Shown: positions 29,333-51,203 of the stretch, one piece after another
How the letters are laid out: each line of letters begins with the position of its first letter
How positions within the stretch are numbered: position 1 is the stretch's first letter
Source: Gemmatimonadales bacterium
GTDB taxonomy: Bacteria > Gemmatimonadota > Gemmatimonadetes > Gemmatimonadales > GWC2-71-9
Direction: 5' to 3'
NCBI GenBank assembly: GCA_035518815.1
Contig: DATIXG010000060.1
Location: 64,881 to 128,880 of the forward strand
DNA: 64,000 nucleotides
The notes under the pieces: model-generated
What the model saw: only the letters and a program-made list of their open reading frames with translations
The model's database searches: none
Told to the model about the DNA's origin: nothing
Translations under genes and position numbers: made by a program

Positions 29333-29904
29333 AGCCTCTACCGCCCTCGTTCTACGCGCGACCGACGCATCTGGTCGCGCGTAGGCTTTTGGGGCAGTTG
29401 GTCGTGAGCACGGTCGGTGGCACACGCACGGCCGGCGTCATTGTGGAGACCGAGGCCTACGTCGGTCCGCACGACCCCGCCTGTCACGCCTACGGCAACC
29501 GGCGCACCGCGCGTACCGAGGGCCTGTATGGGCCACCGGGCACCGCCTACGTCTACTTCACCTATGGCATGCACTGGTGTCTGAATGCGGTGACGATGCG
29601 GAGGGACTATCCGGCGGCGGTGCTGATCCGCGCGCTCGAGCCGCTCGAAGGGCTCGCCACCATGCGGCGGCGACGTGGGGATGTGAGAGATCGCGTCCTG
29701 TGCGCGGGGCCCGCGCGGCTCTGCCAGGCGCTCGGCGTCACGGGGAGGCTGAATGGCGTGTCGCTACAGCGGGGCACGTTGAGGATTCTCGAGATGCCAC
29801 GGCGCCGCGCCCGAATCGTCCGCACGCCCCGCGTCGGCATTTCGCGGGCGACCAGCTGGCCGCTTCGTTTTCTCTTCGCTGACTCGCCCTGGGTTACTGC
29901 TTAG
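29329..29904 (+). CDS. DNA-3-methyladenine glycosylase (Mpg/AAG family)
   Basis: FYARPTHLVARRLLG..IVETEAYVGPHDPACHAY..YFTYGMHWCLN is the canonical AAG family pattern. Confidence 0.9.
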   Translation: MKPLPPSFYARPTHLVARRLLGQLVVSTVGGTRTAGVIVETEAYVGPHDPACHAYGNRRTARTEGLYGPPGTAYVYFTYGMHWCLNAVTMRRDYPAAVLIRALEPLEGLATMRRRRGDVRDRVLCAGPARLCQALGVTGRLNGVSLQRGTLRILEMPRRRARIVRTPRVGISRATSWPLRFLFADSPWVTA

Positions 29905-31139
29905 CGCTCGCCGACACCTTCGCGCGCGCTGCCAAAGCTGTAGCGCAGGCCACCCTGAAGCGTGTGGGTCACGCCGCTGATGAGAAACCCGCTCGCACGC
30001 GACGTCAACAGGTAGTGACCGTAGAGGGACATCCGGCCCTGTCGCGCCTCGATCCCCGCCATCCAAAAGAAGAACGCCTTCGAGGAAGCATCCTCCGCCG
30101 CGAGCTGCACGAGCTGCGCGTCCGTCGCGGTGCACGCCGTGCAGGTTGCCACGGGATTCAGGATTTGCACAATCATGAAGCCGGCACCGCCGAACGGCTG
30201 GACGGCCTTTTGGACCGGGAAGGCCAGGACGCCCGCGATGATGCGGCGCATCTCGTTGAACGCCACATTGCCGGGCTCGAGCGTCCCGTCCGGATGGGTG
30301 ATCGTGGCGTGCCGGTCCGACAAGAAGAACGACTGCTCGTAGGCCACGTACAGCGCCGTCCGCTTTGCCGTCACGAGCCAGTGCCCGCCGAACGTCGGCT
30401 CGGCCGAGAACCCGTCGTAGTCCGTATTGAAGGCCACCACGCCGCCCTGCGCGCCCCAGAACCACTGCTGGTGCCACCCTGAGGTCTGGGTCACAATCTT
30501 TTCCTTGGTGGGGGGGGGAGGTGGCAGCGTTCCCCCGGCGGCGAGAATCGAGTCGCGGGTCTCCTTGGGCAGTTCGGGAGCGGCAGGTTCATGGGTCCCC
30601 CCGCCACCCTTGCCGAAGAGGAAGAACGACAAGCCAGCCGAACCCGTGAAGTCGAGGGGCTTGGCCCCGCCCAGGTACTGGTCGAACGAATAGAACGCCT
30701 TGGCCTCGAGCCGCAGGGCCAGCCTCTTCCCGAAGAAAATCTTGTCGCCGATCCCGCCGTGGATCATGTTGAGATCAACGAAGGGGTCCGTACCGCCCCA
30801 ATGCGCCCGGGTGTACCCCCCGATCACGTAGAGATTGTTGTGCTCGCCACCGGAATTGAGCACGAGGCTGGCACCGAACCGCTGGAGCCTGGTCCCGAAG
30901 GCAACGCCCCCGTTGACGCCAGTCGGGCTCGCCATGTCGAAGGTGGTCTCAATGCCGAAGTAATCGCTGAGGTAATAGCCCAGTACCGCGCCGCCACCGA
31001 AGCCGTTGTCGAGGGTGTAGGTGGCGTCGTAGCCGGTGTATGTCCCAAACCCACCTATCTCAAGCTGGTGGCCGTGTTGGGCGCTCAGGTTGGCGGTCCC
31101 AACTGCCAACGCCAGAGCAGCGATCGTGAGTACCCGCAT
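29901..31139 (-). CDS. outer membrane beta-barrel protein, two-lobed
   Basis: It has the signal peptide MRVLTIAALALAVGTANLSAQ and alternating Gly/aromatic beta-strand patterns. The two halves are joined by GKGGGGTHEPAAPELP..GGTLPPPPPTKE. GAGGAG precedes the ATG. Confidence 0.65.
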   Translation of the reverse strand: MRVLTIAALALAVGTANLSAQHGHQLEIGGFGTYTGYDATYTLDNGFGGGAVLGYYLSDYFGIETTFDMASPTGVNGGVAFGTRLQRFGASLVLNSGGEHNNLYVIGGYTRAHWGGTDPFVDLNMIHGGIGDKIFFGKRLALRLEAKAFYSFDQYLGGAKPLDFTGSAGLSFFLFGKGGGGTHEPAAPELPKETRDSILAAGGTLPPPPPTKEKIVTQTSGWHQQWFWGAQGGVVAFNTDYDGFSAEPTFGGHWLVTAKRTALYVAYEQSFFLSDRHATITHPDGTLEPGNVAFNEMRRIIAGVLAFPVQKAVQPFGGAGFMIVQILNPVATCTACTATDAQLVQLAAEDASSKAFFFWMAGIEARQGRMSLYGHYLLTSRASGFLISGVTHTLQGGLRYSFGSAREGVGER

Positions 31140-31337
31140 GGGACAGCTCCTCAGGTAAGGACCCTGGGGGGCAAAAGGCCCCCCAAAACGCACCGAAAAT
31201 AGGGGTTCGTACAAAAAAAGGCGATACCCGAAAAGCTTGTTGAGCGGGGAGTTAAGCCACCAAGCCTTGAAACTACTTGAAGGTAGGTCGCACCAAGGCC
31301 GAACTTATACCGTATATATACCGAAGATTTACCAATT

Positions 31338-41871: not shown

Positions 41872-41944
41872 GGCAGGTGCTCAGTGCTAGGTGTGAGGAG
41901 CTGGCGGAGTGGGGCCCTAGCACCTGACACCTGGCACCTCGCCC
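41864..41944 (+). terminator. hairpin-forming region built from AGGTGYK repeats and their CACCTGR complements
   Basis: GTGCTAGG (41884-91) pairs perfectly with CCTAGCAC (41916-23), and other registers are possible. It starts at the stop codon of the M50 protease gene. Confidence 0.5.
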
Positions 41945-42007
41945 TTCTGAAGTATTGCGTAAGTTGCGGAGTTTTATATCTTTGCCCAAACCAGCCCACG
42001 GCACGGC

Positions 42008-42292
42008 ATGCCAGCGCAACCGGCGCGATATTCAGCCTCCGAAGTCACCGAAGCGGTCGTTCACGACCTTCCCCCCATCCGATTCGACGGGCAACTCATC
42101 CCCATTCGCCTCTTGGTGCGCCGGACTGAAGACGCTGTCTGGCGCGGCAAAGTGCTGTTCGGGGCCGCCGACACCGAGGCGGAGCGGTCGACGGCGGAGA
42201 TCTTCTGCGCCACTTCCGAGCAGGATCTGTGGCAGTCGGTGCGTGACCTGCGAGATCACCACCTGCGTGATCTGTACCGCTCGCTGCTTTGA
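42008..42292 (+). CDS. hypothetical small protein (94 aa)
   Basis: The ORF has sensible composition and GC-rich third positions. Its TGA overlaps the next gene's ATG by 1 nt (TGATG). Confidence 0.5.
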   Translation: MPAQPARYSASEVTEAVVHDLPPIRFDGQLIPIRLLVRRTEDAVWRGKVLFGAADTEAERSTAEIFCATSEQDLWQSVRDLRDHHLRDLYRSLL

Positions 42293-42516
42293 TGGCCGGG
42301 CCGCCCGGCGCTGAGCAGTCCGAGGGGGCGCCCGGGGCGGGGGTGTTGCGCAAGCTGCGCCATGACCTGTCCAATCCTCTTGCCGCCGTGCTTGCCGAGA
42401 CGCAGCTCCTGCTGTTGAACCCCGAGCGGCTCAGTCCCGACGTCACCTCGAGTCTCCAGCAGATCGAGGCGCTCGCCCGCCGGATGCGGCAGATCCTCGA
42501 AGACCTGGATCCGTGA
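42292..42516 (+). CDS. free-standing HisKA (DHp) domain protein (74 aa)
   Basis: LRKLRHDLSNPLAAVLAETQLLL is an H-box followed by a second helix. No ATPase domain follows. Confidence 0.55.
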   Translation: MAGPPGAEQSEGAPGAGVLRKLRHDLSNPLAAVLAETQLLLLNPERLSPDVTSSLQQIEALARRMRQILEDLDP

Positions 42517-42553
42517 GACGCCGCCACCTGCCGCGCTTTTGTCCCCCATCCCG

Positions 42554-44239
42554 ATGGTGGCGTCCCTACCACCACCAGGCGGTCATGCACAGCCGGCGCT
42601 TCCGCTGGCCCCCGCGAAGGCGGCCCCTGTGGCTCGTGCGCTGATCGCCCGCTTGCTGGTGGTCCTCCTCCTCGGTAGCTGCGTTTTTCCCACCGAGAAG
42701 GACGAATCGGTCCACGTGAGCCTCACGCCCGTCAGAATCCTGTTCCGGGGCAGTGATACCATCGCGACGGCGCAGGCATGGCAAATGACGAGCGCGTCGG
42801 ACTCCCAGCCGATCGCGAACGCCGTATTCGTATGGTCGAGCAGCAATCCAGACGTTGCCACGGTGGACGGGGCGGGTCGCGTGGTCGGCATCAACTCGGG
42901 CACCGCCATCGTGACGGCTGCTGTTGCCAACTTCGACAAGGCGGCGAAACTCGGAGCCGATACGATCCGTGTCGCGAGTCCTCTCGAGATCGACAGCGTA
43001 CTCCCCAAGACAGTGCACTACGGTGAGATGCTCACGATCTACGGCGTGAGCGTGGATTCGATCTTCTCGGCGAGCCTGAAAGGCGCGAACCTCATTCGCG
43101 TGCCGCTTGGCGAGACGACGTATGCGAATGGCACGGTGCGCTCGCGTTGGTGGGTGCCGCCCCCGGCGCATACCGATTCCTTGTTCTTCCTCGGGATCAC
43201 GGGGGGCAACGGCGTGCTCGGATACGTCCACGGCGACACCACTACCGTGGTCGAGCAGGACCTGTACGAGCCCAACGACATCGTCCCACAGCTGCTGAAC
43301 CTTGACGGTCCGCCGCCGTTCCCCCCGCTGCCCACCATCATCTTCGCGAATCCGGCCCTCGCGTTCGAGCCGGTGGTGCGTCCGGCCGTCGCGGGCGTGG
43401 ACTGGTACCGGCTGGAACAGAGCGGACCGCGCGATCTCACGGTCATTCTGACGGCGCCTCAGGTCGTCGGGACCTTCCGGACCTTCCTTGCGGACTCGGT
43501 GGTCTGGGACACCACGAAGAAGAACTTCGTCCTCGGGCCGAACGCCTGGACCTTTGGTCCGGGGTCGCACGCGTGCCACGGGGCTGCCTTCAACGTAAGC
43601 GAGGCCATCGGCGACTCGACGATCATGGCGTTCAAAGCGTTGCCCGCCGGGACGTTCGAGGCAGTGGCGGTCTTTACGGTGCCCGGACGCTATGGACTCA
43701 CCCTGATCGCTGGGTATCAGAGTGAGATTCCCCCCGACGCGCACGAAGACGACAACTCTTGCAACGCCGCGGACGCGCTAGGCCCGCGGCCCGACCCGTT
43801 CCGCGACTCGCTGCTGGCGATCGAGAACCCGCACGCCGTGGATTGGACGCTCTTTAACTCCGTCGGCGGCGCACACCAGATCCGCTTGCACGCGTTCTCG
43901 AGCGGTAACGCGCAGATCGATGCCAAGAAGGACCTCGATTTGTACGTCATCAAGGTGCCAACGCCGGGAGACACGACTGTACAGGTGGTGTTCGCTGATA
44001 CGGCCCCCAGCCCGGACGTGTCGAAGAACAACCTCACCCTCCCGGTGGGCGCCTACTACGCGGTAGTGGTGGACTACGCGGGAGTCAGCACGCGGTACGG
44101 ACTCTGCATGGGGCCCAATGGGGGATCGGGCAAGTGTGCGACGGCCTTCCCTGCCTCGCCCCCGATCGCCACGACCCGGCGCAAGTCCGCCGTGCGGGCG
44201 CTCGCACCCCGGTTCGTCCCTGCGCCGAGTGGACCATGA
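42554..44239 (+). CDS. lipoprotein with a Big_2-like Ig domain and two PPC (pre-peptidase C-terminal)-like domains
   Basis: It has the lipobox LLLGSC and a Big_2-like segment (..VWSSSNPDVATVDGAGRVVGINSGTAIVTA). EPND..DWYRL and EDDNSCN..VDWTLF..DLDLYV match the PPC pattern. The start may instead be GTG 42629. Confidence 0.7.
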   Translation: MVASLPPPGGHAQPALPLAPAKAAPVARALIARLLVVLLLGSCVFPTEKDESVHVSLTPVRILFRGSDTIATAQAWQMTSASDSQPIANAVFVWSSSNPDVATVDGAGRVVGINSGTAIVTAAVANFDKAAKLGADTIRVASPLEIDSVLPKTVHYGEMLTIYGVSVDSIFSASLKGANLIRVPLGETTYANGTVRSRWWVPPPAHTDSLFFLGITGGNGVLGYVHGDTTTVVEQDLYEPNDIVPQLLNLDGPPPFPPLPTIIFANPALAFEPVVRPAVAGVDWYRLEQSGPRDLTVILTAPQVVGTFRTFLADSVVWDTTKKNFVLGPNAWTFGPGSHACHGAAFNVSEAIGDSTIMAFKALPAGTFEAVAVFTVPGRYGLTLIAGYQSEIPPDAHEDDNSCNAADALGPRPDPFRDSLLAIENPHAVDWTLFNSVGGAHQIRLHAFSSGNAQIDAKKDLDLYVIKVPTPGDTTVQVVFADTAPSPDVSKNNLTLPVGAYYAVVVDYAGVSTRYGLCMGPNGGSGKCATAFPASPPIATTRRKSAVRALAPRFVPAPSGP

Positions 44240-45792
44240 CGGCCAACGGCACCGTGGAGTGCGTCCATTGCCACACGCCCCTCCCCACGGGTGGCCGCTA
44301 TTGCTCGGCGTGCGGCGCCGATCAAACCGGTGCCGGCGGCCCCCCCAGCACGACCAGCACGCCCGCCCTCGAACAGCGCCTGCAACGCCTGGTGGCAAGC
44401 AAGTACAAGATCGAGCGCTTGCTCGGGAAGGGCGGGATGGGCGCGGTGTTCCTGGCGCACGATCTGACGCTCGAGCGCGAGGTCGCCATCAAGGTGCTCC
44501 CACCCGACGTGGCCCAGGACGACCAGGTCGTGCGGCGTTTTCATCAGGAGGCGAAGACCGCCGCGAGACTCGACCATCCCAACATCATTCCGATTTACCG
44601 CGTCGAGAGCGAGGGCGGGCTCAACTACTTCGTGATGAAGTACGTCGCCGGCACATCGCTCGAGGACGTCCTGGCACGCCCGGAGCCGCTCGCGCCGGAC
44701 TACATCCAGCGCGTCCTGTGGGAGGCGGCGTGCGCCCTGGGGCATGCGCACCAGCGCGGCGTGGTGCACCGCGACGTCAAGCCGGCGAACATCATGTTCG
44801 ATCATGAGGGGCGCGTGATGCTGACCGACTTCGGTATCTCCAAGGCCTTGCAGGCGGCGACGGGGTTCACGGCGACGGGGATGCTCATCGGTACGCCGCA
44901 CTACATGGCCCCGGAGCAGGCCAAGGGGACCCCGGTCGACGGACGGGCCGACCAGTACTCCCTCGGCGTCGTCGGCTACCGCATGATCACGGGCGACGTC
45001 CCGTTCTACGGCGATTCGGTTCACACGATTCTCTACAAGCACATCTTCGAGCCCGTCCCTACGCCCAAGGAGCTCCCGGCCAATCTCCCGCGCTACGTCT
45101 GGGCAGCGATCGCCCGCGCGATGGCCAAGGAGCCCGGGCAGCGCTTCCCGACGATGGAGGAATTCGCCACCGCGGTTTGGCCGGAGCACCCGGTTGCGGC
45201 GGGGCCGCCCCGCCGGCCTTCGCAGGCGATCAGTGCGCCGGGTGTCGGGTCAGACACCCCCACCGAGATCAGCGGCGCGATAACCGACGCGCGCACCACC
45301 CCGATGCGCACTCCAGCCGGGGCGGCTGCGCCTGCTCCCGTCCCGCAGCAGTCTCGAAGGCGGTTGTTGGCCGCGATCGTTGTTGTCGCAGTGGCGGGGG
45401 TGGCTGGATATCTCGCCCTTGGTCGGGGTACGGGTCGCAACGAACCCGCCGCGCCGGCGGTGGAGACCGTTCAGGTCCCGAACACGGTGAGAGTCAACGC
45501 GCCGCTGGCGCCCGCGCGCCGATCGCCGTCCCGCAGCGCTGCGGCGCCGACGGCCCCGCCCCCCCCGGCCGCGCAGGCCCAAGGATATCTCACGGTCAAC
45601 GCCGACCCGTACGGCGAGTTGTTCGTCGACGGCGTCGACGTCGGGCCGACGCCCGTCGTGCGGTATGCCGTCCCGCCCGGCGTGCATACGGTCAAGGTGG
45701 TCCGTGAGGGCTACCGCACGGTGACGGAGCGCGTGCACGTGGACGCGGGCAATACGGTACCGAAGCGCTACACGCTCATACCCGAGGGATGA
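44236..45792 (+). CDS. Ser/Thr protein kinase with an N-terminal zinc ribbon and a C-terminal PEGA domain
   Basis: It has CVHC..CSAC, GKGGMGAVF, AIK, HRDVKPANI, DFG, one TM segment (LLAAIVVVAVAGVAGYLAL) and a PEGA-like end (GYLTVNADPYGELFVDGVDVGPTP..PGVHTVKV). Confidence 0.9.
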   Translation: MTANGTVECVHCHTPLPTGGRYCSACGADQTGAGGPPSTTSTPALEQRLQRLVASKYKIERLLGKGGMGAVFLAHDLTLEREVAIKVLPPDVAQDDQVVRRFHQEAKTAARLDHPNIIPIYRVESEGGLNYFVMKYVAGTSLEDVLARPEPLAPDYIQRVLWEAACALGHAHQRGVVHRDVKPANIMFDHEGRVMLTDFGISKALQAATGFTATGMLIGTPHYMAPEQAKGTPVDGRADQYSLGVVGYRMITGDVPFYGDSVHTILYKHIFEPVPTPKELPANLPRYVWAAIARAMAKEPGQRFPTMEEFATAVWPEHPVAAGPPRRPSQAISAPGVGSDTPTEISGAITDARTTPMRTPAGAAAPAPVPQQSRRRLLAAIVVVAVAGVAGYLALGRGTGRNEPAAPAVETVQVPNTVRVNAPLAPARRSPSRSAAAPTAPPPPAAQAQGYLTVNADPYGELFVDGVDVGPTPVVRYAVPPGVHTVKVVREGYRTVTERVHVDAGNTVPKRYTLIPEG

Positions 45793-46841
45793 CCGCGATG
45801 CGCCGATGCTCGTTGCTGCTCGTGCTGGCTCTGTGCGATCCCTTGGCGGTCTGGGCGCAGGCAGCGCACCAGCCCAAGAGCGCCACGCTCCGTCAGGCGC
45901 TCCAGGCGTACGACAACCTCGACTTCACGCGTGCCGTCGCGCTCGCGCGCCGGGCGCTGACCGAGCGTCTCTCCGGGCCAGATCAGGCGCAGACCTACGA
46001 GCTTCTGGGGTTTGCTTTCGCTGCCGTCGACTCACAGGCCAAAGCCGTAGACGCCTTCAAGCAGGCCATCCTGCTCGACCCCGATCGGCAGTTGGACCAG
46101 AGCAAGGTGTCCCCCAAGATCACGAGCCTGTTCTACTCGGCCATGGGACAGGTGTTGGTCGTGCGCCAGCTGCGCGTCGACAGCGCGCGGTTCATCCCGG
46201 GTCAGGGATCGGTGCCGCTGCGGTTCACGATTACGAGCCCGGCCCGCGTGCGGGTGCGGGCCGTGAGCGGCGCGACCACCCTGCTCGTCGATTCGATGGT
46301 CACGACGGGGTTGGTGAACACGCGCTGGACGGCGCGGTTGCCCGGGGGCGATCCCGTGGCGACGGGCGCCTGGCTGATTGTCGTCGAGGCCACCGCGGGG
46401 CAGAACGCCTACTCGGCATCGCAAGCGCTCCGCGTGGCCTATAACCTGGTGGACACGCTTCCGCACCTCACGAGCCTCCCCGGCTACCAGGAGCTTCCCG
46501 AGACGGAGGTGCCGCCCCAGAGCTGGCGCCCCTTGGGACTCGCGTTTCTCTTCACGACCGCGACGGCGGTTGGTGTAGTGGCGCTCCACAGCGGAGACCT
46601 GGGCTCGGCACCAGGGACCGAGCTGGCGACCGTCGGGGCCGTGACGATCGGGACCGGTCTCGTCATGACCCTGCGCAAGCCCGCGCCGCGTCCTGCGACC
46701 GGGAACATTCTCTACAACAAGTTGCTGCGAGAGCAGCTCGCTCAGCGGAACGCGGACATCACCAAGGAAAACGTCAAGCGGCGCCAGCAGGTCGTGCTGA
46801 GCGTCGTGCCACTCCCGCCACCCGCTGGCGCGCCGCGGTGA
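45789..46841 (+). CDS. hypothetical exported/membrane protein (TPR-like N-terminal domain, beta-rich middle, two C-terminal TM segments)
   Basis: It has the signal peptide MTAMRRCSLLLVLALC... It is coupled by ATGA to the kinase gene and by GTGA to the next gene. Confidence 0.6.
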   Translation: MTAMRRCSLLLVLALCDPLAVWAQAAHQPKSATLRQALQAYDNLDFTRAVALARRALTERLSGPDQAQTYELLGFAFAAVDSQAKAVDAFKQAILLDPDRQLDQSKVSPKITSLFYSAMGQVLVVRQLRVDSARFIPGQGSVPLRFTITSPARVRVRAVSGATTLLVDSMVTTGLVNTRWTARLPGGDPVATGAWLIVVEATAGQNAYSASQALRVAYNLVDTLPHLTSLPGYQELPETEVPPQSWRPLGLAFLFTTATAVGVVALHSGDLGSAPGTELATVGAVTIGTGLVMTLRKPAPRPATGNILYNKLLREQLAQRNADITKENVKRRQQVVLSVVPLPPPAGAPR

Positions 46842-47482
46842 CCCGGAGCGGCTTCATCACCCTGCTCGGGGCGCTCACCGCCGCACCCGCAGCCGCGCAA
46901 CACCTGGTCATCACACCACAGGCTGCGCTGGTGGACTACGGGGAAGTGTCGTCCGCGCTGCGATTCTCAGGGGTGGGGCCGGCGGTGCAGGCGTCGTTCA
47001 CATTCGGTCGCTTCGCCGCCGAAGGCTCCTTTGTCTCGGTGCAAATGGATCCGACCGACCAGACCTCGGCCGCCGAAGGGTTCCAGGCGACCGAGATCGT
47101 TGGCCACATCCGGTACGAAGTGACCGGGTACCTCGGCCTCGAGGTCGGACTCACCAGCCGCACCACGGACTCCGAGTTCGCCGCGCAGTCGATCGGGGCC
47201 GCGAGCGTGGGGGTACGCACCCACTACCTGTTGGGTCCCGGCGCCCGGGTATGGGCTCGCGGCGGCTATCTCGCCGCGGCGCAGTTCTCAGGTGGTGGCA
47301 GCGCGCCGCTCTCCTTCGAAGTCGGACTCGGCGTCGACGTCACGTTGGTGCGACACGTCCACCTCACCGCCGACTACGGGTTCGAAAAGTTCGGTCGCAA
47401 GACGGAGCCCGGTGGCGGCGCCGAAGTAACTGCGCCGATCGAACAGTCGCAGGCGCGCCTCGGGGTGGCGGCGGTGTTCTAG
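46838..47482 (+). CDS. outer membrane beta-barrel protein
   Basis: It has the signal peptide ..LLGALTAAPAAAQ, an alternating beta-strand pattern and a C-terminal ..RLGVAAVF. Confidence 0.65.
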   Translation: MTRSGFITLLGALTAAPAAAQHLVITPQAALVDYGEVSSALRFSGVGPAVQASFTFGRFAAEGSFVSVQMDPTDQTSAAEGFQATEIVGHIRYEVTGYLGLEVGLTSRTTDSEFAAQSIGAASVGVRTHYLLGPGARVWARGGYLAAAQFSGGGSAPLSFEVGLGVDVTLVRHVHLTADYGFEKFGRKTEPGGGAEVTAPIEQSQARLGVAAVF

Positions 47483-47504: not shown

Positions 47505-48899
47505 ATGGCAAAAGAGCGGTCGATGAAGACCGGCCCGCACGCGGGCCGTCTGCCGCAGGAGGGATCTCCAAAGAACCGGGACTACCCTCGTATCGTCGTG
47601 GCCCCCCCCGGTCCCAGGGCCCGAGCCATCGTAGCCCGGCAGGATCGCTGGGCGTCCACGTCGTATCAGAAGGAATACCCGCTCGCCATCGCGCGTGGCG
47701 AGGGGGTCATGGTCGAAGATGTGGACGGCAACCGCTACCTCGATTTCATGGCGGGGATTGCGGTGAGTGCCACGGGCTATGCGCATCCGCGCGTCACCGC
47801 GGCGGTGCAAGAGGCTGCCGCCCGTTTCCTCCACTTCTGCGGCAGCGATTTCTATTACGAGGGGTTCGCCGCGCTGTGCGAGCGGCTGGCGAAGCTCGCC
47901 CCGGGCTCGAGTCCCAAGCGGGTGCTCTTGGCGAACTCGGGAACGGAAACGGTCGAAGCCGCGATGAAGCTGGCGCGGCACTCCACCGGCCGCACCGCGT
48001 TCGTGGCGTTCACCGGGGCGTTTCACGGGCGCACCTACGGCGGGCTGAGCCTCACGGCCAGCAAGGCGGTGCAGCGGGCCGGGTTCGCGCCCTTCGTTCC
48101 CGAGGTCTACCACGTCCCCTACGCGTACCGCTATCGGTGCGAGCTGTGCCGTGGCGAGGAGGCGTGCAGCAAGCGGTGCGTGTCGACGATCGAAGACGAG
48201 TTGTTCGCCCGGCGGCTCGATCCGCGCACCGTGGCGGCGCTCTTCGTTGAGCCGATCCAGGGCGAAGGGGGCTATATCGTTCCTCCCGCCGGATTTCTGC
48301 CCGCCTTGCGCGCGCTGTGCGACCGGCACGGCATCCTGCTCGTGTGCGACGAAGTCCAGAGCGGGGTCGGACGCACGGGGACGATGTTCGCGTGCGAGCA
48401 GGAGGGCATCGAGCCCGACGTCCTGCTCGTGGCCAAGGGGCTTGCAAGCGGTCTACCGATCGGCGCGATGGTGGCCAAAGAGTCGGTCATGAAGTGGGGG
48501 CCCGGCGCGCACGCGAGCACGTTCGGGGGCAACCCCGTGTGCTGTGCCGCGGCGCTGGCTACCCTCGACGTGGTCGAGGGTGAGCTTCTCCCGAATGTCC
48601 GTCGCACGGGCGAGCGGCTCTTGGCGGGCCTCGCGGCGCTTGAAGCCCGCCACCTGTCGATCGGCGAGGTGCGGGGGCGGGGACTCATGGTTGGTGTCGA
48701 GTTCGTCAAGGACCGCGCCACGCGCGAGCCGGCACCCGACATTCCTCGGCAGGTGGTGCAGCGAGCCTTCCGGCGCGGGTTGCTGCTGCTCGGCGCCGGC
48801 CGCAGCACGTTGCGCTTGGCACCGCCCCTGGTCATCGACGAGTACGACGTCGATGTGGCGCTCAGGATCATCGACGAATGCCTGGCGGAGACGAGCTAG
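47505..48899 (+). CDS. class III aminotransferase (4-aminobutyrate / acetylornithine aminotransferase-like)
   Basis: ..NSGTETVEAAMKLAR..FHGRT..DEVQSGVGRTG..STFGGNP is the class III PLP pattern. Confidence 0.9.
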   Translation: MAKERSMKTGPHAGRLPQEGSPKNRDYPRIVVAPPGPRARAIVARQDRWASTSYQKEYPLAIARGEGVMVEDVDGNRYLDFMAGIAVSATGYAHPRVTAAVQEAAARFLHFCGSDFYYEGFAALCERLAKLAPGSSPKRVLLANSGTETVEAAMKLARHSTGRTAFVAFTGAFHGRTYGGLSLTASKAVQRAGFAPFVPEVYHVPYAYRYRCELCRGEEACSKRCVSTIEDELFARRLDPRTVAALFVEPIQGEGGYIVPPAGFLPALRALCDRHGILLVCDEVQSGVGRTGTMFACEQEGIEPDVLLVAKGLASGLPIGAMVAKESVMKWGPGAHASTFGGNPVCCAAALATLDVVEGELLPNVRRTGERLLAGLAALEARHLSIGEVRGRGLMVGVEFVKDRATREPAPDIPRQVVQRAFRRGLLLLGAGRSTLRLAPPLVIDEYDVDVALRIIDECLAETS

Positions 48900-49031: not shown

Positions 49032-50417
49032 ATGCGGGCGGAGGTCTGTATTACGGGACCGCGGTTGTTTCGGTATTTCGCAGTCTCGGCCATTTTGGCC
49101 GCTGCGTATTTCGTCGCGGGCAAGTTAGGGTTGCGCCTCGCCTTTGTGCATGCGAGCGCCACCGGCGTATGGCCCCCGACGGGCATCGCTGTGGCGGCCT
49201 TGCTCATCTACGGCTATCGCATGTGGCCCGCCATCCTCACGGCCGCCTTTCTCGTGAATGTGACGACCGCGGGTTCCGCGGGGACCTCGCTCGGTATCGG
49301 CGTCGGTAACACACTCGAGGCTCTGGCGGCGGCGTTCCTCGTGAACCGATATGCGGGGGGCATCGGGGCGTTTGCGGACTCGCGCAACACCTTCAAGTTC
49401 ATCCTCGCTGCGATGGTCAGCACCGCCGTTAGTCCAACCATCGGGGTTTCGAGCCTCGCCCTCGGCGGGTATGCTCACTGGGCCACCTTCGGCTCCATCT
49501 GGCTCACCTGGTGGATGGGTGATACCGTGGGGGCCCTCGTCGTGGCGCCAGCGTTGATCCTGTGGGGTGTCAACCCCCGGATTCGCTGGAGCCGCACTCG
49601 CATCGCCGAAGTGGTTGCGCTGTTCTGCTGTCTCATCCTCCTGAGCCGCAGTGTCTTCGACGGACTGCTGCCGTTCGGGGTCCACAACTATCCGCTCGAA
49701 TTCCTCTGCTTCCCGATCCTCTTGTGGGCGGCGTTCCGGTTCAGCCAGCGAGAGGTCGCGACCGCGCTCGTTGTGTTATCGGCGATCGCCATTGCGGGCA
49801 CGCTCAGGGGAGATGGCCCGTTCGCGCGTCACGCGCCCAACGAGGCCCTGGTGCTGCTGCAGGCGTTTACCGGCGTGACGGCCGTGATGTCGCTCGCCGT
49901 GGGGGCGGTGGTGTCGGAGCGCAAGCGGGTCGAGGATCGGATGCGGCGGCTGGCGGTAAGCGACCCTCTCACCGGTCTGGCCAACTACCGGCAGTTGGTC
50001 GAGGTGCTGGACGTGGAGATCAAGCGCGCCGAGCGCACCGGGCGGCCGTTCGCGGTCGTGTTCCTCGACCTCGACCGATTGAAGAAGATCAACGATCGCC
50101 ACGGCCACATCGTGGGGAGCCGAGCCCTGTGCCGGGTGGCCGATGCGATCCGCGCATCGTCCCGTCTCATCGACACGGCGGCGCGGTTCGGCGGCGACGA
50201 GTTCGCGCTCGTGCTTCCGGAAACGGACGAGCACGGGGCCCGGGAGGTGGCAACACGGCTGCAGGAGCGGGTGGCGGCGGATAAGGAAGTGCCCAGGCTC
50301 TCGGTGAGTCTGGGGGTGGCCGTCTACCCTAAGGAAGGCGATACCGCCGACGGCTTGCTGGCTTCCGCCGACCAGGCGTTGTACGCGGCGAGAGAATACT
50401 CAGGGAGCGGTCGCTGA
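49032..50417 (+). CDS. diguanylate cyclase with an N-terminal MASE1-like membrane domain
   Basis: The N-terminal half is multi-pass. The C-terminus has DPLTGLANYR..RFGGDEFALVLPE (GGDEF). Confidence 0.85.
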   Translation: MRAEVCITGPRLFRYFAVSAILAAAYFVAGKLGLRLAFVHASATGVWPPTGIAVAALLIYGYRMWPAILTAAFLVNVTTAGSAGTSLGIGVGNTLEALAAAFLVNRYAGGIGAFADSRNTFKFILAAMVSTAVSPTIGVSSLALGGYAHWATFGSIWLTWWMGDTVGALVVAPALILWGVNPRIRWSRTRIAEVVALFCCLILLSRSVFDGLLPFGVHNYPLEFLCFPILLWAAFRFSQREVATALVVLSAIAIAGTLRGDGPFARHAPNEALVLLQAFTGVTAVMSLAVGAVVSERKRVEDRMRRLAVSDPLTGLANYRQLVEVLDVEIKRAERTGRPFAVVFLDLDRLKKINDRHGHIVGSRALCRVADAIRASSRLIDTAARFGGDEFALVLPETDEHGAREVATRLQERVAADKEVPRLSVSLGVAVYPKEGDTADGLLASADQALYAAREYSGSGR

Positions 50418-50428
50418 GTTGCGGGTGA

Positions 50429-50502
50429 TGCGCCAGCCGCGATTCGAACGCGGGACCTTCGGCTCCGGAGGCCGACGCTCTATCCAGCTGAGCTACTGGC
50501 GC
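50429..50502 (-). tRNA. tRNA-Arg(CCG)
   Basis: Hand-folded cloverleaf: GCGCCAG..CTGGCGC acceptor stem, anticodon loop CTCCGGA, T-loop TTCGAAT. No CCA is encoded. Confidence 0.85.
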
Positions 50503-50521
50503 GTACAGAGGGTGGTGGCAA

Positions 50522-50596
50522 TCGGGGCGAGTGGATTTGAACCACCGACCTCCTGGTCCCGAACCAGGCGCGCTAACCGGGCTGCGCTACGCCCCG
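50522..50596 (-). tRNA. tRNA-Pro(CGG)
   Basis: CGGGGCG..CGCCCCG acceptor stem, anticodon loop TTCGGGA, T-loop TTCAAAT. Confidence 0.85.
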
Positions 50597-50610
50597 CAAC
50601 GACCGACCAA

Positions 50611-50684
50611 TGCGCCCAGAGGGACTCGAACCCCCAGCCTTTTGGTCCGTAGCCAAACGCTCTATCCAATTGAGCTATGGGCGC
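50611..50684 (-). tRNA. tRNA-Arg(ACG)
   Basis: GCGCCCA..TGGGCGC acceptor stem, anticodon loop CTACGGA, T-loop TTCGAGT. Confidence 0.85.
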
Positions 50685-50687
50685 GAG

Positions 50688-50761
<74 letters not shown>

Positions 50762-50766
50762 AAGCA

Positions 50767-50842
50767 AATGCGGAACGCGAAATGGCGAATGCGGAATGGT
50801 TGTCGCTGGACATTCCGCATTCCACACTCCGCATTCCGCATT
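50767..50842. repeat. long imperfect hairpin (32-nt arms made of GCGGAAT-type heptamers) in a tRNA spacer
   Basis: The left arm is AATGCGGAACGCGAAATGGCGAATGCGGAATG. The reverse complement of the right arm is AATGCGGAATGCGGAGTGTGGAATGCGGAATG. I count 27 of 32 positions pairing, with a 12-nt loop. Confidence 0.8.
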
Positions 50843-50845
50843 GAG

Positions 50846-50919
50846 TAGCGGGGGTGGGATTTGAACCCACGACCTCCGGGTTATGAGCCCGGCGAGCTAC
50901 CAGACTGCTCCACCCCGCG
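50846..50919 (-). tRNA. initiator tRNA-fMet(CAT)
   Basis: The 5' end is CGCGGGG with a C1:U72 mismatch. The anticodon stem has three G:C pairs (GGG/CCC) and the loop is CTCATAA. Confidence 0.85.
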
Positions 50920-50986
50920 TCGCTTGTCAGTCAGCCAGACGGACTGATCGCTAACCTCTACCCGTCTAACTATCTATCCCTTGCAG

Positions 50987-51059
50987 AGCGGGAAACGGGA
51001 CTCGAACCCGCGACCCCAACCTTGGCAAGGTTGTGCTCTACCAACTGAGCTATTCCCGC
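50987..51059 (-). tRNA. tRNA-Gly(GCC)
   Basis: GCGGGAA..TTCCCGC acceptor stem, anticodon loop TTGCCAA. Confidence 0.85.
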
Positions 51060-51130
51060 GTGCGCTGCTAATGTAACCGCTCAATTGGACAAGCTCTACC
51101 GCCTCCGCCCCTGCCCCGGCCGCCCTGCAG

Positions 51131-51203
51131 TGGAGGCGAGGGGGATCGAACCCCTGACCTCGTGAATGCCATTCACGCGCTCTCCCAACTGAGCTACGCC
51201 CCC
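51131..51203 (-). tRNA. tRNA-Ala(GGC)
   Basis: GGGGGCG..CGCCTCC acceptor stem with the G3:U70 identity pair. The anticodon loop is ATGGCAT. Confidence 0.85.

Follow-up and report, generated by a model that had tools for sequence, protein, structure and literature searches.

We analyzed a stretch of 64,000 nucleotides from a Gemmatimonadales bacterium (GenBank assembly GCA_035518815.1, contig DATIXG010000060.1, positions 64,881 to 128,880; hereafter the window), in which six consecutive plus-strand genes, named here g1 to g6 in 5' to 3' order, had been described in an earlier note as a candidate trans-envelope signaling operon. The order and the kind of overlaps of the last four, g3 to g6 (42629-47482), are seen again in 29 other close loci, and those of g4 to g6 in 8 distant ones, which confirms that the arrangement is real and beyond chance. 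Our reading of these four genes, on which we place about even weight, is that they form a conserved envelope module around a receptor-type Hanks kinase with periplasmic and outer-membrane partners. The first two genes, g1 and g2, appear to have reached their present position next to this module by a recent deletion.

The list of open reading frames (ORFs), together with a direct reading of the junctions, bears out the six consecutive same-strand genes as well as the ATGA, ATGA and GTGA overlaps that chain g3 to g6. A fourth overlap, TGATG between g1 and g2, adds to the three already noted, and 112 nucleotides separate g2 from g3 when g3 is taken to start at 42629. The overlaps argue for coupled translation; the fixed stoichiometry that had been deduced from them is not proven by overlaps.

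The close loci came from a species-level scan anchored on g3, with one genome per species. All but one are Gemmatimonadota metagenome-assembled genomes (MAGs; 28 of 29), the remaining one being labeled 'uncultured bacterium'. Gene order was read by tblastn with the window proteins, the length of each contig limiting how far a locus could be followed. The order g3-g4-g5-g6 was found in 21 of the 21 loci that extend to g6, and all 29 agree as far as their contigs reach; the order of the four-gene block is thus kept beyond this genome. Identity is 61-79% for the kinase g4 and 57-88% for g5. The g3/g4 overlap (29 junctions) measures 4 nucleotides in 20, 1 nucleotide in 5 and 8 nucleotides in 1, and a start codon with a 4-nucleotide overlap is available at 17 of the 21 junctions between g4 and g5 and at 19 of the 21 between g5 and g6.

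An exhaustive profile search with g5 returned 402 cluster representatives at E ≤ 1e-10, among them a distant full-length subfamily with the same architecture at 23-28% identity. Exact-protein look-ups of nine distant g5 homologues gave eight informative loci (L031, L032, L033, L034, L035, L036/L037, L038 and L041), reached through g5 homologues of only 23-30% identity; the ninth (P0409, in L039) was uninformative. At all eight the g5 homologue follows the kinase gene, or its C-terminal remnant at the contig end, and is itself followed by the gene for an exported protein of 199-225 amino acids (aa), the junctions being mostly 4-nucleotide overlaps. By hhalign this small protein is a homologue of g6 (probability 95%, E 2e-8). 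A three-gene core of Zn-ribbon/PEGA kinase, g5 and g6, accompanied by a variable lipoprotein, therefore appears to be conserved beyond the close relatives. Both g3 and g5 have many homologues, and the ones with a named organism belong to Gemmatimonadales or Gemmatimonadetes.

Domains were called by Pfam and NCBIfam scans against curated cut-offs and by PADLOC defense models, which have no curated cut-off. The proposal that g4 is a membrane Ser/Thr kinase with a cytoplasmic zinc ribbon and a periplasmic PEGA domain was upheld by Pfam, hydropathy and cysteine conservation. The catalytic domain (Pkinase, E 9.2e-49) contains GKGGMG, VAIK, HRDVKPAN, DFG and APE, as expected of a Hanks kinase, and the PEGA domain (PF08308) scores 45.6 bits against a cut-off of 20.8 (E 6.5e-12); PEGA is also present in the kinase orthologues of L031, L035, L036 and L030, the last being the window's closest relative (g3 76% identical). 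The Zn_Ribbon_1 match (PF13240/DZR) reaches 18.2 bits, below its cut-off of 25, and the two-knuckle pattern CxxC-x12/13-CxxC is found in all 37 kinase orthologues examined, distant ones included. Because the protein has one transmembrane (TM) helix and this is preceded by RRR, the kinase domain is predicted to be cytoplasmic and PEGA extracytoplasmic.

Of the 36 orthologues of sufficient length, 34 have intact catalytic motifs. In a predicted pseudokinase (L036:700-2193, also seen in L037), the Gly loop is replaced by RRDRRS, VAIK by VTLR, HRD by HGG and DFG by DPG. It retains PEGA, and g5-like and g6-like genes come next, again with 4-nucleotide overlaps. That such a pseudokinase keeps PEGA and both partners argues for a physical assembly.

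For g5, the AlphaFold2 (AF2) model has a predicted local distance difference test score (pLDDT) of 78.5. Helices 32-121 of this model match TPR structures (Foldseek probability 1.0, TM-scores up to 0.75, target-normalized) and can be assigned to the TPR fold, the Pfam TPR matches of the window protein all being below cut-off; some homologues are annotated as TPR_1/TPR_2 and FlgD_ig. Foldseek matches to g5 were at the level of the TPR and Ig domains, never of the whole protein. The earlier description of an exported TPR-like protein with two C-terminal TM helices stands as to the export signal and the TPR head, had missed the Ig-like domain, and is less certain as to the second helix, which is weak. 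In three g5 homologues (P0404, P0398 and P0379), two PEGA domains have been inserted after the TPR head and ahead of the FlgD_ig-like domain. Because this subgroup has gained PEGA domains, PEGA can be tied to the periplasmic part of g5. In L033 and L038 the gene for a double-FHA protein adjoins the triad on the opposite strand.

We consider g6 to be probably a small outer-membrane beta-barrel, with a location that is not secure. It matches OMP_b-brl (PF13505) at 24.3 bits (E 3.9e-5), below the cut-off of 28.7, and its matches to porins and designed barrels in a PDB profile search are non-significant (porins, E 0.19-0.7). Members of the close g6 family have the signal peptide and end in Phe. 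What had been claimed as an outer-membrane beta-barrel accordingly keeps its signal peptide, its terminal Phe and a barrel-type profile, and is weakened by the sub-threshold score and by the ends of the distant homologues, which are Arg. Elsewhere in the window, on the minus strand, a 437-aa protein (29901-31214) matches OMP_b-brl at 35.4 bits, above the Pfam cut-off; it is BLAST-unrelated to g6.

The start of g3 is most likely the GTG at 42629, not 42554 as given before; the later start agrees with the gene caller's prediction (P0001) and, in the alignment, falls on the Met of every homologue. The protein has a signal peptide and an LLGSC lipobox, the Cys of which (residue 18) is invariant in 12 of 12 sequences. 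Big_2 is matched in the window protein (E 4.8e-8) and in all 12 family members (E 4.5e-8), and the C-terminal region is beta-rich, with the invariant motifs DAHEDDNSCN, IENPH and DLDLY. The lipoprotein and its Big_2 domain therefore hold up; the two PPC-like domains once assigned to it fare less well, PPC (PF04151) giving weak matches in two of the 12 family members (best E 7e-4), the window protein not among them. A PDB profile search with g3 found nothing significant beyond Big_2, and an AF2 model built from a 12-sequence alignment (pLDDT 44) was too poor for a judgment on domains and was not used. The Big_2 protein encoded 5' of the kinase in distant loci varies in length, from 222 aa in L035 to 988-1026 aa in L031 and L032; what the 988-1026-aa proteins have in common with g3 is limited to ~200 residues at the N terminus. 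The position of the lipoprotein thus appears to be conserved and its outer part to be exchangeable between lineages. One MAG, SMAG_U13732, has two g3 homologues on separate contigs (L021 and L022; 55% and 53% identical to the window protein), which could mean either that the block has a second, paralogous copy or that strains are mixed.

Table 1. Features of the g1-g6 region and of related loci. Coordinates refer to the window unless a locus is named; residue ranges (aa) refer to the protein.
Feature	Coordinates	Strand	Residues	Description
Conserved non-coding element 5' of g1	41952..41997	+		GTATTGCGTAAG, ~12 nucleotides, TTATATCTTTGCCCAAACCAGCCC; ends ~10 nucleotides before the g1 start codon
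g1	42008..42292	+	94 aa	Cytoplasmic protein, unknown fold
g1/g2 junction	42290-42294			TGATG; g2 ATG at 42292
g2	42292..42516	+	74 aa	Free-standing DHp (HisKA) protein; stop codon 42514-42516
g3	42629..44239	+	536 aa	Lipoprotein; alternative start 42554
g3/g4 junction	44236-44239			ATGA
g4	44236..45792	+	518 aa	Receptor-type Hanks Ser/Thr kinase
g4 Zn ribbon	44260-44322		9-29	
g4 kinase domain	44404-45144		57-303	
g4 single TM helix	45358-45432		375-399	From hydropathy; preceded by RRR
g4 linker				Pro/Ala-rich, ~50 residues, between TM helix and PEGA
g4 PEGA domain	45586-45777		451-514	C-terminal
g4/g5 junction	45789-45792			ATGA
g5	45789..46841	+	350 aa	Exported membrane protein, signal peptide
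g5 TPR-like head			32-121	From AF2 model
g5 Ig-like/FlgD_ig-type beta-sandwich			125-220	From AF2 model
g5 linker				Conserved DTLPHLTSLPGY, between Ig-like sandwich and hydrophobic helices; from family alignments
g5 hydrophobic helices			about 247-268; about 276-295	First strong, second weak; from hydropathy
g5 C-terminal helix			304-331	Conserved, Asn-rich
g5/g6 junction	46838-46841			GTGA
g6	46838..47482	+	214 aa	Exported protein, signal peptide (AAAQ), C-terminal Phe
Class-III aminotransferase	47505-48899			Begins 22 nucleotides past g6; no terminator-like site in the gap
MASE1-GGDEF diguanylate cyclase	49032-50417			Next after the aminotransferase
P0404	L038:3992-5857			PEGA-bearing g5-family protein
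P0398	L033:588-2414			PEGA-bearing g5-family protein

In the mechanism that we propose, the Zn ribbon and catalytic domain of the kinase would lie in the cytoplasm, and the linker would carry the small PEGA beta-sandwich into the periplasm. There, g5 would be anchored in the inner membrane with its TPR head and Ig-like domain facing the periplasm, g6 would be a small outer-membrane-type beta protein, and g3 would be a Big_2 lipoprotein with a lineage-variable outer part. PEGA, on its long flexible linker, would probably bind the TPR/Ig part of g5, and g5 would probably be linked to g6 and, by way of the variable lipoprotein, to the outer membrane or the surface. Kinase oligomerization and activity would then depend on envelope state or on a surface ligand, with Ser/Thr phosphorylation of cytoplasmic targets encoded outside the block as the output. 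That the kinase-g5-g6 core and its lineage-specific Big_2 lipoprotein make up an undescribed trans-envelope signaling complex of this kind, running from barrel and lipoprotein through a TPR/Ig adaptor to PEGA, and in the window's lineage possibly also wired by co-transcription to the free DHp protein, is a tentative proposal, possible rather than probable.

Several points weigh against an envelope module built around a signaling kinase. Catalysis appears to be dispensable in at least one lineage, where a scaffold or structural role would fit as well as signaling. The topology of the g5 C terminus is ambiguous, as the second helix is weak and the RKPAPRP stretch that follows it would fit a cytoplasmic tail. 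The g6 profile match falls short of the Pfam cut-off, and in distant homologues of g6 the last residue is Arg, not an aromatic one. By named genomes, the breadth of the block is that of Gemmatimonadales. Near the block in the window there is no FHA, PP2C or other obvious output partner.

An alternative is that the main role of the block lies in envelope structure or assembly, for example as a tether or platform reaching from the inner membrane through the periplasm to the outer membrane, with the kinase as scaffold or local regulator. We think this unlikely, but count it as a serious rival. The pseudokinase with its retained PEGA and partners would suit such a device, as would the very high conservation of kinase and g5 and a neighborhood of housekeeping genes (rho, mltG/YceG, ruvX, sigma-70, Mla and ATP synthase) without dedicated output genes in the block. 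However, the motifs left intact in nearly all orthologues indicate that kinase activity is under selection, and the variable part of the lipoprotein resembles a ligand- or surface-facing input module.

The earlier note had gone further and treated all six genes as one unit, remarking on its combination of His-kinase-type and Ser/Thr-kinase-type parts. Neither claim survives as a description of the ancestral state. In every relative whose contig extends far enough upstream (16 of 16), g2 is found ~6.8-7 kb 5' of g3 (g1 was also detected by tblastn in 13 of them), and the interval is filled by five unrelated genes: RDD/SpoIIM, on the opposite strand, followed by DUF4129, DUF4350, MoxR AAA_3 and DUF58/VWA (for example, L009:1200-7886). 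The last four genes of this 6.8-kb MoxR cluster are on the same strand as g3, and the final one ends ~25-160 nucleotides (typically ~70) before it; L030 aside, a DUF58 gene directly precedes g3 in every close locus for which the upstream DNA is available (27 of 27). None of the five cluster proteins was matched anywhere in the 64-kb window, no recognizable remnant of the cluster was found at the junction (42516-42629), and the cluster is also absent from L030. Because only the window and L030 lack the cluster, the adjacency of g1-g2 and g3 is best seen as the product of a deletion, and because L030 has the same M50-g1-g2-g3 arrangement, the loss is real. The most straightforward account would be a lineage-specific deletion, common to a small clade, that recently joined g1-g2 to g3. 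The MoxR/DUF58 cluster, which adjoins g3 upstream in the close loci, is missing from the window, from L030 and from the distant kinase-core loci, and so is a neighbor in one family and not a part of the module. A deletion can thus create an apparent 'hybrid' operon, which calls for caution in reading operons from a single genome.

Transcription in the window may nonetheless differ from that in the relatives. Relatives, L030 among them, have an AT-rich TTAGATTGG-like element ~30 nucleotides before g3 (L001:7940-7976, L030:4990-5024), and no such element is present in the window between 42517 and 42628. Because this element has been lost, co-transcription of all six genes is possible in the window, where g3-g6 may be read through from the element upstream of g1 as a derived six-gene transcript.

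A functional unit of all six genes, in which g2 and g1 would exchange signals with the Ser/Thr kinase complex in a hybrid His/Ser-Thr pathway, could draw on such read-through and on the same-strand adjacency seen in the window and L030; we nevertheless regard it as quite improbable. Besides the five intervening genes, the first of them on the opposite strand, the separate element before g3 that even L030 keeps speaks against it. Two distant loci bear on the question. L031 encodes an RsbRD_N protein and a 90-aa protein 90 nucleotides upstream of the Big_2 gene, and L032 has the same pair 3 kb upstream of the block with two glutamine synthetase genes between; a g1-like protein might therefore lie near the block there. 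The similarity of the small protein to g1 is weak, however (hhalign P 3.8e-4, probability 36%, 51 columns). With a hidden Markov model made from the L031 and L032 proteins, g1 orthologues came out on top of 2,370 six-frame ORFs, though with E values of only 0.2-1.6. A remote homology of the small protein to g1 is thus possible, which we regard as a lead and not a finding. No g1-like gene was found within 5 kb upstream of the kinase in L035, and g2 has no counterpart in the distant loci. An apparent g1 match in L039 was discarded as a spurious Arg/Ala-rich reverse-frame ORF. The L031 and L032 pair itself (L031:4412-5181, L032:1261-2067) is translationally coupled and consists of an RsbRD_N protein of 166-171 aa and a protein of 74-90 aa.

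The g1-g2 pair is itself conserved, 3' of an M50 protease gene, and appears to be a separate conserved unit outside the ancestral kinase block. No match to g1 was found in Pfam, NCBIfam or a PDB profile search, and the protein is 80-87% identical among relatives in which g3 is 47-66% identical. The claim that g2 is a free DHp domain was correct: HisKA scores 35.6 bits against a Pfam cut-off of 26.9, as expected of a phospho-acceptor DHp domain, and Pfam gives no HATPase_c match, so that the protein lacks the catalytic domain of a sensor histidine kinase. In 17 orthologues its H-box, LRHDL[SA]NPLAA, is conserved and the His never varies. The protein is likewise short in relatives, including L030, and in those with the MoxR cluster the next gene is the reverse-strand RDD/SpoIIM. 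With two-component histidine kinases g2 thus has in common the HisKA helix pair and the invariant H-box histidine, but at only 74 aa it is without HATPase_c, sensor and receiver domains. From this domain content g2 cannot be expected to autophosphorylate alone; it could be a phosphotransfer protein or a dimerization decoy.

The non-coding element upstream of g1 (Table 1) is near-identical in most of 14 related loci aligned, and in all relatives it stops ~10 nucleotides short of the g1 start codon. It probably serves g1-g2 as promoter or 5' leader, and may be a regulatory leader, as its conservation exceeds the needs of a simple promoter. A Bacteroidetes-type TAnnTTTG promoter consensus was considered and rejected, its core occurring only three times in the window, which is the chance level. 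Immediately after the M50 gene, an imperfect inverted repeat (41884-41935; -43 kcal/mol, z only -1.8 versus shuffles) may be a terminator between M50 and g1.

It is very improbable that g3-g6 are unrelated envelope and kinase genes that share an operon without joint function. The order and the start/stop overlaps are kept down to ~25% protein identity while both flanks change completely, and PEGA domains have been gained by g5 homologues. Scarcely credible is a defense locus around a PD-T4-6-type anti-phage kinase: g4 scores up to 318 bits with the PADLOC PD-T4-6 models, and MADS6 and PglW kinases are matched below threshold in NCBIfam, but these matches span the generic Hanks kinase domain and are far below the NCBIfam family cut-offs, the other five proteins match no PADLOC defense model, and a fixed core-chromosome position across an order, without defense-island variability or mobile-element context, led us to reject it.

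As the earlier note had suspected, no match to a described system was found in Pfam, NCBIfam, PADLOC, PDB or the literature. By architecture, the closest systems appear to be TagQRST-PpkA and Rcs, with no homology to the block beyond the kinase domain. In the H1 type VI secretion system (T6SS) of Pseudomonas aeruginosa, TagQRST-PpkA-Fha1-PppA is a threonine phosphorylation pathway that relays envelope damage across the envelope (PMC7817224). The likeness is that a Hanks-type kinase of the membrane, part of which lies in the periplasm, is encoded alongside a lipoprotein of the outer membrane and accessory proteins of the periplasm or inner membrane. Scans with Pfam and NCBIfam found none of the TagQ/R/S/T, Fha, PppA or T6SS families in g1-g6 or the scanned neighbors, which places the block outside this system; g5 matches TssQ in NCBIfam at 21.7 bits against a cut-off of 65. 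Homology is confined to the kinase domain. Where PpkA has a VWA domain in the periplasm, g4 has PEGA, and a beta-barrel-type protein and a TPR/Ig membrane protein are additional components of the block.

The Rcs system of Enterobacterales comprises the lipoprotein RcsF, OmpA-type barrels and BamA, IgaA and RcsC/D/B, and in it an inner-membrane protein with a periplasmic domain controls a membrane kinase. The parts list is thus similar (lipoprotein, outer-membrane barrel, inner-membrane protein with a periplasmic domain, membrane kinase), but the Rcs kinase belongs to a histidine kinase phosphorelay and the Rcs genes do not form one overlapping operon; NCBIfam and Pfam scans showed no sequence similarity of Rcs to the block. 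The PASTA kinases PknB and Stk1, known from Gram-positive bacteria, resemble g4 in combining a Hanks catalytic domain with a single TM helix and a sensor domain outside the cytoplasm. The best NCBIfam match of g4 is indeed PknB_PASTA_kin (NF033483), at 325 bits against a cut-off of 450 and over residues 51-418 only, and g4 is not a PASTA kinase: it has no PASTA repeats, and instead a single PEGA on a long linker and an N-terminal Zn ribbon. To our knowledge, PknB/Stk1 kinases have no outer-membrane partners.

We infer that the block is a receptor Ser/Thr kinase with envelope partners, and the module appears to be undescribed. Extracytoplasmic partners are, as far as we know, established for very few bacterial Hanks-type receptor kinases, and a literature search on PEGA-domain kinases found no paper assigning a function to PEGA on kinases. 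If the trans-envelope complex tentatively proposed above is real, the block would be a Ser/Thr-kinase counterpart of Rcs or TagQRST and would give a first function to the widespread PEGA domain on bacterial kinases. It would serve as a test case for how the state of the outer envelope is passed to Ser/Thr phosphorylation in diderms outside Proteobacteria, and its natural variants (PEGA-bearing g5, a pseudokinase, swapped lipoprotein heads) make it a concrete, testable system.

Downstream of g6, the aminotransferase (Table 1) follows only in the window and L030, and the cyclase is found downstream also in L001 and L007; L009 and L003 have a CHASE3-PAS histidine kinase and a rhomboid there, and L001 a receiver-like protein. 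Because the genes 3' of g6 differ in this way between relatives, the block ends at g6, and a fifth conserved gene after it was rejected. A scan for sigma-70 promoters and terminators gave nothing informative within the block, and an Rfam scan of 40.5-50.4 kb found no RNA family. The only Rfam matches are tRNAs, which lie beyond the block: seven tRNA genes in tandem on the minus strand (50429-51203; 64-72 bits).

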